This document shows positions 4,159 to 33,732 of a DNA stretch of 64,000 bases, piece by piece (positions within the stretch are counted from its first letter, which is position 1; each line of letters opens with the position of its first letter). Source of the stretch: a virus. Under the pieces are notes generated by a model. That model saw only the letters and a list, made by a program, of their open reading frames with translations, was not told the origin of the DNA and did no database searches. The stretch covers positions 1-64,000 of the IMG/VR virus record IMGVR_UViG_3300049491_000350; one strand, 5' to 3'. Made by a program: the position numbers and the translations under genes.

Positions 4159-4527
4159 ATGGAACTGAATTTAAAAAACTTTAGTGAACTAAATCGCCAA
4201 AGGGCAGAGGAAGGATTTAAAACTTACAAGAACGTACCAATAACATATTGGACAACTGCGCTCATGGGAGAAGGCGGAGAGTTGTGTAATATGGTTAAAA
4301 AAATGGAGCGTGTATCTCATGGTGGAATTGATGGCGGCAGTTCATATACTGCATCTGAAATAACTAAAGATATGCTGGAAGAAGAAATTGGTGGCATAGG
4401 CATCTATCTTGATTTGCTTGCAGGATTGTTGGGCATCTCTTTAGAGGAGGCTATAATAAAAACATTCAACAGTAAATCTGAAAAATATGGCTTCAAACAA
4501 TTCCTGCCGACTGTTCCAGAGTTATAA
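4159..4527 (+). CDS. MazG-like nucleotide pyrophosphohydrolase
   Basis: ALMGEGGELCNMVKK...LEEEIG...YLDLLA...LEEAIIKTFN. Confidence 0.8.
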   Translation: MELNLKNFSELNRQRAEEGFKTYKNVPITYWTTALMGEGGELCNMVKKMERVSHGGIDGGSSYTASEITKDMLEEEIGGIGIYLDLLAGLLGISLEEAIIKTFNSKSEKYGFKQFLPTVPEL

Positions 4528-4657
4528 GTATATAAAGCGAACTGAATTTTGGGAGGCATTTATTATAGTCTCCTTCTGCAAAGCATTAGGGTTTCCGTTA
4601 TATAGTTACGCATGGTGGAAATCACGATTGGCACTAATAAAAAAAGGGGAGATATGA
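4487..4657 (+). CDS. Small hypothetical protein (56 aa, not in ORF track)
   Basis: MASNNSCRL...KKGEI; its TGA overlaps the next ATG (ATGA) and fills an otherwise empty gap. Confidence 0.4.
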   Translation: MASNNSCRLFQSYKYIKRTEFWEAFIIVSFCKALGFPLYSYAWWKSRLALIKKGEI

Positions 4658-7544: not shown

Positions 7545-7556
7545 CCAACCTTTACA

Positions 7557-7838
7557 ATGGACTATAAAGTAATTTTCGACCACAAACTATTTTCTTCCAC
7601 TGTCTCAATGAAGCGTCTTGGAATGAAGCTAACCAAGAAAAAATTAGCAGAGGTAACAGGCATCAGCGTTTATCATATCACATCGCTTGAAGATGGCAAG
7701 CCAGACATCGTAATTGATTTTGTCGCCTTCGCATCCCTGTGTGTTTTCCTTGATATATCTATGGACAGGTATTTTACAAAACAGATTGATACTGGCTGTG
7801 GCAGTTTCAAGATTAAAAGGAAGCACACAAATGGATAA
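7557..7838 (+). CDS. XRE-family helix-turn-helix regulator
   Basis: LTKKKLAEVTGISVYHITSLEDGK. Confidence 0.75.
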   Translation: MDYKVIFDHKLFSSTVSMKRLGMKLTKKKLAEVTGISVYHITSLEDGKPDIVIDFVAFASLCVFLDISMDRYFTKQIDTGCGSFKIKRKHTNG

Positions 7839-14244: not shown

Positions 14245-14258
14245 AATATTTTACACCC

Positions 14259-14715: not shown

Positions 14716-15231
14716 ATGAAAATGATAGTATTTGCCCTGTTCTCTGTATCTGGCCTTGCAATAGGAAGGATTATAGACGTGTACGGCCTTATTGAAACAA
14801 AAACACCAAATGACGTAGCGATGGTGTATGTTATCCCCTTGATAATAACTCTGATTATATCCTTTGTATTAATGCTTAGGCTTGTTCCTAAAGCTACTGA
14901 CGAGTTTAATGACGAGATAGCGTTATTAGGGCAGACGAATCGTTTTGCAGGAGAATACCAAAGCTACGAATCAAGGATTGGAGAAAAGGTTGCTATGTAC
15001 GGAGCATTGTATATAAAAGATAGCGTCCATTCTTCAAGAGAACACGGCATGGAAGAATACTTTCTTTTGGTGTGTACTAACAAGGGTGATATATGGCATA
15101 AGTCGCCAGTAAATCTTGAGGGCAAATTCGGTAGTCAAAGTGAATGGAGCAACCGAAAGTTAAAAGATATACAAAGGTTCTTGAGAGATGACTTTATTGA
15201 ATCAACTACTATTCCCGTTTTTAAACAATAA
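14716..15231 (+). CDS. Membrane protein, hypothetical
   Basis: Two N-terminal hydrophobic segments. Confidence 0.6.
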   Translation: MKMIVFALFSVSGLAIGRIIDVYGLIETKTPNDVAMVYVIPLIITLIISFVLMLRLVPKATDEFNDEIALLGQTNRFAGEYQSYESRIGEKVAMYGALYIKDSVHSSREHGMEEYFLLVCTNKGDIWHKSPVNLEGKFGSQSEWSNRKLKDIQRFLRDDFIESTTIPVFKQ

Positions 15232-15379
15232 CCGTTTGCGATGTGGGTGTCCGAAAGGAATATATAGATAAGATTTACGCCACTAACTGACGTAGTGGAA
15301 TCTGGGGCGATGCCATCCGAGACACAGGGAACAGGACGGCCAAAGCAGCTAAGTAAATCCTCGCCACATTGCAACGGTT
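15230..15379 (+). ncRNA. Candidate structured non-coding RNA (family not recognised)
   Basis: Closing stem AACCGTTTGCGATGTGG/CCACATTGCAACGGTT, TCC-GAAA-GGA hairpin, stem GATTTAC/GTAAATC, hairpin CCACTA/TAGTGG; GC-rich intergenic island. Confidence 0.55.
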
Positions 15380-15395
15380 TTTAAAACAGAGCCAA

Positions 15396-15809
15396 ATGAC
15401 TATAAAAGAACTTCTTGAGTACGCTGCTAAAAATGAGGTAGTGTACGTTCAATTGGAAACCAAATTAAAATTCGCAAGTTCTACCAAAGGCATTGTAGGC
15501 TGCATCAGGATAAGGGAAGGAGGTGTTACAGGGTGTGGCGTAATGTTTGAAGGTACTAATTGGGAGACATGGTTTCATGCTAAGGACGACAAGGATAAGA
15601 GAAGCAGGTATATGAGCCAGCTTAGTTTCTTTGTTAACGAACATGCTGCATGGTGGAACGGGCTGACAGACCCTCAAAGGGAAAAGGTTAAAGCGGCGTA
15701 CCATAGTGAGTATCAGTTTAAGGTAATAAGAGACCTATCTGATGACGAGATAAAACTGGTTTACTCAAAGAGAGATTTCTATGATACCATTTACAATTGT
15801 TTCAACTAA
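15396..15809 (+). CDS. Hypothetical protein
   Basis: Start at ATG 15396 after the structured element. Confidence 0.6.
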   Translation: MTIKELLEYAAKNEVVYVQLETKLKFASSTKGIVGCIRIREGGVTGCGVMFEGTNWETWFHAKDDKDKRSRYMSQLSFFVNEHAAWWNGLTDPQREKVKAAYHSEYQFKVIRDLSDDEIKLVYSKRDFYDTIYNCFN

Positions 15810-15819
15810 TAGAATAAAA

Positions 15820-16494
15820 ATGGAAGATAAGTATTACATAGTAAGTATCAAGCACACATCAAAAGGAGACAATGCGATAACGCTTTGGAGAGCGGATTCG
15901 TCCGGGTATTGCTTTAGAAAAGATTGGGCTGGCCTATACACAAAAAGCCAAATTGGTTTTATTGATATGAGGGAGACTGAAAATGTTGCAATATTGGCAT
16001 CTTCCGCAGACAAGTTGTTTGCGTCCGCTCTTTATGATGGGCAGGATATTGAGTGCCTTGAAAATTCAGAATCCGTAAGAGAGGCATTTAATCTGAACTA
16101 TGACAAGATGAAACAAAAGAGGATGGCTACCATCAATGTCTCGTATTACCACAAAGGCTCATCATTAAACAAGCAAAGTGATGACGAAGAAGAAAGCCGC
16201 ATTAAAAAAAAGATTGAATCAACGCTCGATGGCGTAGAAATAAAATGGAATTATCGCAGGTGTGGCAATACAACAAGGCAAGTGGATAGAGCGGTTCAAA
16301 TATTGTTTAGTGGGTCTATATGCAAAGTGAGAGACCATCACAGGATGGGCGAAGATACAAGGATGAATATGCGATTGGCTGACTTGATATTGAGGCGGAT
16401 GAACAATGAGGGGCATTTAGGAGGATTGGCTACAATAGGAGAACGTGTGTTGCTGAACAAGCAAAACATGACCCTTGAAATTTGCCGTAAATAA
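15820..16494 (+). CDS. Hypothetical protein, apparently two fused small phage domains
   Basis: N-part YIVSIKHT...TLWR...GY....AGLY; C-part RRCGNTTRQVDRAVQILF. Confidence 0.6.
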   Translation: MEDKYYIVSIKHTSKGDNAITLWRADSSGYCFRKDWAGLYTKSQIGFIDMRETENVAILASSADKLFASALYDGQDIECLENSESVREAFNLNYDKMKQKRMATINVSYYHKGSSLNKQSDDEEESRIKKKIESTLDGVEIKWNYRRCGNTTRQVDRAVQILFSGSICKVRDHHRMGEDTRMNMRLADLILRRMNNEGHLGGLATIGERVLLNKQNMTLEICRK

Positions 16495-32952: not shown

Positions 32953-33732
32953 ATGGCGCAGAAAATTATAACAATGGGTAGGGTGCTGAAATCTGTTCTT
33001 GCTTCGGCAAACAAAGAACAGAATCAGCACTATCCACCTCATATATTCAACGAACACTTTGTACTTGTTACAAAGTGGTTGTTGGATGAGATTGCCAAGA
33101 TATTCCCGACCCAACAGACAATCGTTGATTTGGCAAGGTCGTTCTTGAAAACTGCTGACAAGCAGGTAAAGAACGGCCTTATACCATTTCCTGACGATTA
33201 CAGGAATCTTCTTAGTGTAAGCATTTTTTCTTCTGATGATTTCAAGACTGCCTGCGATTGTACTAAACAAGATGGTGATGGCGATGAGTGCAGCGAATTT
33301 GAAAATGACCCAATAGCGCCTACTGACAAACAGATTGAAAGTAAAATTGCAGAGCGCAGGGCAAGAAGCAAAAGAGTTAAGATTGTAGATATAGATGAAT
33401 GGGATTATCTTACGCAGCACGTCTATAAAAAACCAACGCTACAAAAGCCAATAGCTTGTATATTTGAAGGCGAAGGAATAAGGATTTGCCCATTTGATGT
33501 ACCAAGCGTTGAGGTTAGGTTCTTGAGAAATCCAAAGGATTACGTTTACAACTATGACACACTCCCTGACGATACTTATGTGTTCAATACAGTAGGGAGT
33601 GAGGAGAGCGAATGGTTTGACAATGCGGCAACTCAATTATACAAAGGCGTTGCAACATTATACGCAATGTACGTGAAGGATACAGAGATGAGGGATTACA
33701 ACATAGAGCTTAAAAATTCAGGCATTTTTTAA
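32953..33732 (+). CDS. Head-tail ring/adaptor protein (putative)
   Basis: ANKEQ...PP..FN, FPDDY, RFLRNP; position in the tail module. Confidence 0.6.
   Translation: MAQKIITMGRVLKSVLASANKEQNQHYPPHIFNEHFVLVTKWLLDEIAKIFPTQQTIVDLARSFLKTADKQVKNGLIPFPDDYRNLLSVSIFSSDDFKTACDCTKQDGDGDECSEFENDPIAPTDKQIESKIAERRARSKRVKIVDIDEWDYLTQHVYKKPTLQKPIACIFEGEGIRICPFDVPSVEVRFLRNPKDYVYNYDTLPDDTYVFNTVGSEESEWFDNAATQLYKGVATLYAMYVKDTEMRDYNIELKNSGIF

Follow-up and report, generated by a model that had tools for sequence, protein, structure and literature searches.

Is the GC-rich gap of about 150 nt at 15230–15379 in this phage genome the locus of a new structured RNA, or an element of another kind? A first-pass annotation had described it as a nested, multi-stem RNA candidate and proposed an undescribed phage ncRNA, a ribozyme or an RNA released by RNase III. 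The window analysed here covers the initial 64 kb of an IMG/VR virus record of 82,750 bp, which carries inverted terminal repeats and has an estimated completeness of about 65%. The phage is uncultivated, and its own family of uncultivated relatives is detected. Its large terminase (TerL) shares 24% identity with the terminases of Flavobacterium and Cellulophaga podophages, while the closest TerL relatives, at 57–69% identity, are known on Logan contigs only. The phage was found in a freshwater sediment sample and, letter-identical, in a freshwater metagenome of a second study. Three DNA runs carry the identical sequence, and no RNA run is among the listed holders. In the other runs holding the phage, neither variants nor joints nor an empty-site form lacking the element were found. 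The genes around the element all lie on the + strand, and its features are as follows.

14716–15231, + strand: orphan ORF upstream of the element, 171 aa with two predicted membrane helices; the first P1 base pairs overlap its stop codon
15217–15225, + strand: left copy of the 9-nt direct repeat GTTTTTAAA, within the last codons of ORF 14716–15231
15230–15246, + strand: 5′ arm of P1, the closing inverted repeat, pairing with 15364–15379
15247–15263, + strand: P2, hairpin with a GAAA tetraloop (TCC-GAAA-GGA at 15250–15259); C-G pair probability 0.98
15272–15359, + strand: P3 domain, with a 7-bp stem (15272–15278 with 15353–15359) that encloses P4 and P5
15280–15298, + strand: P4 (15280–15285 with 15293–15298), within the P3 domain
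15312–15340, + strand: P5 (15312–15318 with 15334–15340), one A·C mismatch, within the P3 domain
15364–15379, + strand: 3′ arm of P1, the closing inverted repeat, pairing with 15230–15246
15377–15385, + strand: right copy of the 9-nt direct repeat GTTTTTAAA, overlapping the P1 end and the T run
15378–15382, + strand: T5 run, a terminator-like U tract directly after the 3′ arm, with two T inside P1
15396–15809, + strand: orphan ORF downstream of the element, 137 aa; its start lies 13 nt past the T run, and the usual junction motif is missing

A closing stem around a GC-rich gap

Composition sets this gap apart from the others in the genome. Its GC content of 0.50 is the highest among gaps over 100 nt, the rest ranging from 0.20 to 0.42, and the element itself has 0.49 against 0.38 and 0.40 in the flanking genes. 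The gap had rightly been called GC-rich. It had also been called the largest non-coding gap in the accessory region, which by crude gene calls is not quite the case (7545–7713 measures 169 nt). The element lacks coding capacity: stop codons occur in five of its six frames, and the remaining frame, on the − strand, runs open through the whole element as part of ORF 15135–15374, a non-protein-like frame of 79 aa with a TTG start. The flanking genes are orphans. ORF 14716 matches only itself in 5.8 billion proteins, neither flanking protein has relatives in IMG/VR, and no usable atlas match was obtained for either.

All stems listed in the first-pass annotation can be read in the sequence where it had placed them, and so can the terminal T run. 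The closing stem P1 consists of 16 bp (16 of 17 positions pair), with eight G-C pairs, one G-U pair and one bulged T. Folded alone, it reaches −20.1 kcal/mol on the + strand and −18.7 kcal/mol on the − strand. Its pair probability over five sampled pairs is 0.73–1.0, the outermost A-U pair having 0.73 and the other four 0.89–1.0. P1 brackets the gap from the upstream stop codon up to a point 16 nt short of the next ATG. A dinucleotide-shuffled genome contains 0.63 ± 0.75 stems of this grade with a span of 90–260 nt; the real genome has three, starting at 187, 4443 and 15230. Because they also arise in shuffled genomes, P1 is remarkable mainly for its placement: it brackets exactly one GC-rich gap, and T5 follows at once.

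Could P1 have arisen by chance, within a spacer that has no function or within what is left of a decayed gene? The expectation of about 0.6 such stems per genome would allow it, and so would the chance-level folding of the interior. When MFE is regressed on GC across the genome, the element lies only about 1.5 sd below expectation, and several other sites are far more extreme. A chance stem, however, must fall exactly across one GC-rich gap that makes up 0.2% of the genome, and a T run and a flanking 9-mer repeat must be added to it. The identical sequence in two independent studies likewise speaks against chance, though it shows only a recent common origin. We consider a chance origin improbable.

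The stem starting at 4443 (window 4443–4575) is a long-range stem of 18–20 bp that runs from the 3′ end of ORF 4159–4527 into the next gap. It has no T run, and its overall z is only −1.1.

Folding of the interior and the search for an RNA family

The whole element folds better than its dinucleotide shuffles (z = −2.4 to −2.65), and this signal comes entirely from P1. For 15225–15390 the MFE is −46.9 kcal/mol on the + strand and −45.5 kcal/mol on the − strand, with z = −2.4 each. Once P1 is removed, the interior of 117 nt (15247–15363) is left with z = −0.07 and is equalled by 100 of 200 shuffles. The P3 domain has z = −0.7 with 40 of 200 shuffles equally good, and the ensemble diversity of the interior is ordinary. 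P1 is the sole part of the element that exceeds chance. Since the interior folds at shuffle level, the nested multi-stem appearance is what would be expected of any sequence with such composition. Of the multi-stem fold proposed at first, the 16-bp closing stem is real, but the nested interior does not stand out from shuffled sequence.

The locus could encode a genuine new structured ncRNA that acts in trans or as a cis-regulatory leader. Its roughly 150 nt would comprise P1–P5 and a GNRA loop, with the closing stem as protection and a U tract of its own at the end, and the RNA may be carried as a small cassette. The highest GC content of the long intergenic gaps is a classic structured-RNA signal in AT-rich genomes. 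P1–P4 are well defined, with pair probabilities of about 0.9–1.0, while P5 has 0.55–0.64. The named five-helix structure has −43.5 kcal/mol on the + strand against −38.5 on the − strand, and these 5 kcal/mol in favour of the + strand arise because three G-U pairs turn into C·A on the − strand. All nearby genes have the + strand as their sense strand, and only there does the T run follow the stem. A GAAA tetraloop is present, the closing stem with a U run resembles that of many stable small RNAs, and the element is unexplained by any known family. Against these points stands an interior that equals shuffled sequence in both energy and ensemble diversity. Homologues were not found in the collections searched, so there is no covariation; the promoter-like junction motif is missing upstream; and no partner protein family occurs nearby or in the genome. 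A new ncRNA is thus unlikely in our judgement. Less likely still is its narrower form, a self-contained phage ncRNA of ~150 nt, built of five helices that include a protective closing stem, with a GNRA loop and its own terminator, that would move as a mobile cassette between junction sequences and act in trans on host or phage targets.

Searches against known families gave no assignment, in agreement with the first-pass annotation, which had not recognised the element as a tRNA, a hammerhead or a known riboswitch. In Rfam 15 no family reaches its gathering score in the window, and at E ≤ 10 over 15100–15500 two chance rows appear, scoring 17.7 bits where the threshold is 52 and 11 bits where it is 60. 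The description as undescribed holds. ARAGORN reports 0 tRNA or tmRNA genes in the window, and none of the ribozyme models scores on the element. A hammerhead would have the core CUGANGA ... GAAA around three stems. The only CUGA word is CUGACGU in the P4 loop, so the essential A9 is absent, and no Rfam hammerhead model matches. Other RNA classes were rejected as well. For a riboswitch, P1 with about −20 kcal/mol is too stable to be a ligand-switched helix, and a separate expression platform is lacking. A CUAAG of the 11-nt tetraloop receptor is present, but the opposite strand does not fit UAUGG. Complementarity between loops never exceeds 4 nt, which leaves no pseudoknot. The arms are inverted and not direct, unlike those of a CRISPR-repeat mimic, and the element is too small and of the wrong architecture for a group I intron. 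Together, inner stems at chance, the missing hammerhead core and the lack of a ribozyme model match lean against a dedicated multi-stem RNA or ribozyme.

Relatives of the element were sought at several levels. The element with its surrounding 5 kb gave nothing in blastn against 50,697 phage records, and the element gave nothing against plasmids. A TerL profile yielded 4 viral and 27 metagenome loci, with TerL identity of at most 50%. The one sequence and its named structure served to build a covariance model (R1), which was run on these loci, on four whole related IMG/VR records and on the whole genome, and found only the query. Its sole weak match, L033:1397–1496 (E = 0.57), lies within a 321-aa ORF and was rejected. 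Viral and metagenome collections and a genome collection of 185,579 species were scanned for exact patterns, an approach that would miss diverged copies; these scans were empty save for a chance match in coding sequence (L034). Within the phage genome a second copy was not found. The multi-stem RNA that had been claimed is unsupported, yet unrefuted. Covariation of the inner stems in relatives would define a new phage RNA class, and nothing found points there.

Stronger folding signals exist elsewhere in the genome. On the + strand, 160-nt windows at 33041, 57681, 241, 24321 and 54961 have folding energies 3–4 sd under the genome-wide GC regression. The strongest RNA-structure signal of the genome lies outside the window, on the + strand at G000 65230–65490 (L035:1230–1490). 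These 261 nt fold with −104.9 kcal/mol and z = −6.23, 0 of 200 shuffles being as good; the − strand reaches only −76 kcal/mol and z = −3.1. The segment lies within a 280-aa ORF on the + strand (G000 64706–65548) that has no PHROG match, and no Rfam family or tRNA was found in it.

Junction signals, direct repeats and the origin of the element

The position of the element within its transcription unit was read from a palindromic motif, TAAAATATTTTACAAT, that recurs 0–30 nt before gene starts, at times reaching over the ATG. At module boundaries it often stands directly after short canonical terminator hairpins. Its sites in the window include 1799, 4129, 9681, 14247, 16506, 21871, 25396, 29744, 33745, 35264, 43099, 55043, 57033 and 59173, and it is also present on the − strand beyond 64 kb. 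TAAAATATTTTACAAT is probably a promoter or junction signal of the phage, and it resembles the TAnnTTTG box of Bacteroidota only loosely. The copies nearest to the element are those at 14247 and 16506, which places it mid-way in a four-gene unit. Unlike at the ordinary terminators of the phage, no TAAAATATTTTACAAT motif stands right after the element.

In the source sample, a low-depth contig of 151 nt is 84% identical to the start of ORF 14716 (window 14716–14829) and has the junction motif before it. Therefore a close relative of the phage is present in the sample, unassembled.

On the sense strand, the G-C-containing 16-bp stem (8 G-C) followed by T5 at 15378–15382 has the make-up of an intrinsic terminator. 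A compact hairpin is not what it closes, as the loop measures 117 nt, and a terminator consensus scan made no call here. Such a helix may nevertheless have evolved in place, with no insertion, as a terminator, attenuator or RNase III processing site. Selection would have acted on the transcript, setting the expression or stability of the gene pair upstream apart from that of the pair downstream, and the direct repeat would simply reflect junction composition. The stem and T5 right after a stop codon on the sense strand fit this explanation, as does the excess of long-range stems in the genome (3 against 0.63 expected, including 4443–4575 at another ORF end), although that excess is only weakly significant. 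Further points in favour are the branched hairpin with T6 in an intergenic gap of a relative (L020:785–950) and the overlap of the direct-repeat word with the junction and T-run vocabulary of the phage. Ordinary terminators of this phage, on the other hand, are short hairpins, so that a loop of 117 nt has no evident need, and a foreign origin explains the GC jump better. Across the phage group, stems of at least 10 bp with a T run after them show just a modest enrichment, 52 against a shuffle mean of 36. Evolution in place is conceivable, but we doubt it.

The locus in that relative, a phage whose TerL is 35% identical, has an intergenic 10-bp stem around two small hairpins, then T6, and shares no sequence similarity with the element. 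Outside the window, on the − strand at G000 73565–73714, a 14-bp closing stem with T6 surrounds the first ~45 codons of an ORF that starts at a junction motif. It has the same 150-nt span as the element, and its MFE is −55.2 kcal/mol over 161 nt. As a homologue of the element it was rejected, the two not being homologous.

A second feature brackets the gap. The word GTTTTTAAA occurs on both sides as a direct repeat, with only 6 copies on the + strand of the 82.7-kb genome, and a 9-mer shared between windows equally far apart is seen at 0.3–0.5% of places. The word resembles the T-run-plus-AAA vocabulary of the gene junctions of the phage, which weakens the significance to an estimated 0.03–0.05 or so. 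It abuts or overlaps the right P1 arm and lies 4 nt from the left arm (left inverted repeat 2–7 nt subterminal). When the element is deleted at GTTTTTAAA, the upstream ORF extends by eleven codons and overlaps the next start, which is a normal junction for this phage.

We favour, with a probability of roughly 45%, the reading that a lone element with inverted repeats at its ends, MITE-like or left over from a cassette, was inserted at this gene junction, and that its transcript hairpin and U tract make a mid-operon terminator or processing site. The inner fold at chance level and the lack of any relative in the searched collections make an inserted element or terminator hairpin likelier than a new RNA gene. 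According to this proposal, a non-coding, GC-rich piece of about 150 bp would have been inserted between two co-directional accessory genes. The terminal inverted repeat of 16–17 bp and the 9-nt direct repeat would be footprints of MITE-like transposition; alternatively, a cassette may have been captured between two copies of the junction sequence of the phage. Upon transcription of the + strand, the arms would pair into a long helix that closes a branched loop of 117 nt, with UUUUU immediately after it. Helix and UUUUU could then act as a mid-operon intrinsic terminator or attenuator, possibly also as an RNase III or 3′-end-stabilising hairpin, and the two downstream genes (15396–16494) would be expressed less. 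The inner hairpins would be incidental. Irrespective of origin, the sense transcript should contain a helix of about −20 kcal/mol with U5 after it. The RNase III or hairpin role, already suggested in the first-pass annotation, is plausible, given the real helix of 16 bp that P1 makes on the sense strand. Both termination and cleavage at the element are predicted, and a terminator with a loop of 117 nt would be kinetically unusual.

Several observations weaken the insertion reading. A single copy is known, and the searches of large collections used exact patterns only. The left inverted repeat is offset from the direct repeat, so the geometry is not textbook, and the repeated word may belong to the junction vocabulary. 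A search of the record for a transposase, integrase, reverse transcriptase or TnpB gave nothing. Should the insertion reading hold, the element would be another small inverted-repeat-bounded element in a freshwater Bacteroidota-type phage, which is ordinary biology, and it would have created an internal terminator in an accessory operon. A matching copy in a host could in principle tie the phage to that host.

Comparison with known systems

With intrinsic (Rho-independent) terminators the element shares a G-C-containing helix followed by a U tract, on the sense strand and just past a stop codon. It differs in its branched loop of 117 nt, where terminators have 3–10 nt, in having only 3–5 U, in its mid-operon position and in the absence of a junction motif after it.

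RNase III processing hairpins stand between genes of phage early operons, and the R sites of T7 are hairpins of 50–60 nt with an internal loop. Like the T7 R sites, the element has a bulged double-stranded stem between genes, about 1.5 helical turns long, within a polycistronic phage transcript. It has no sequence or structure homology to them, and its stem closes a multiloop of 117 nt. Its 16-bp helix makes it a candidate RNase III substrate.

Mobile regulatory cassettes or 'morons' occur in phage hyperplastic regions. Like these, the element is a unit between two junction-like copies in an accessory region, with a putative terminator at its end; unlike these, it contains neither an ORF nor a recognisable promoter copy.

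The element also resembles small inverted-repeat elements. Phages, those of Bacteroidota among them, are documented to carry MITEs of 50–800 bp, with terminal inverted repeats (TIRs) of 10–15 bp or more and target-site duplications (TSDs) of 2–10 bp (PMC11602168). The element differs from these MITEs in being single-copy: neither a second copy nor a related autonomous IS as its parent was found in the phage or in the searched collections, the large ones by exact pattern. Its left repeat is 2–7 nt subterminal, and its direct repeat may be junction vocabulary. With a non-coding length of 150–160 bp it lies within the documented range, and with 16 of 17 positions pairing its TIR exceeds the minimum of 10–15 bp. 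The element is like prokaryotic and viral MITEs and the Correia and ERIC-type elements in its non-coding body of about 150 bp, its TIRs of 14–17 bp and its flanking direct repeat of 6–9 bp. The likeness extends to the intergenic site, the deviant composition and a long transcript hairpin able to terminate or be processed.
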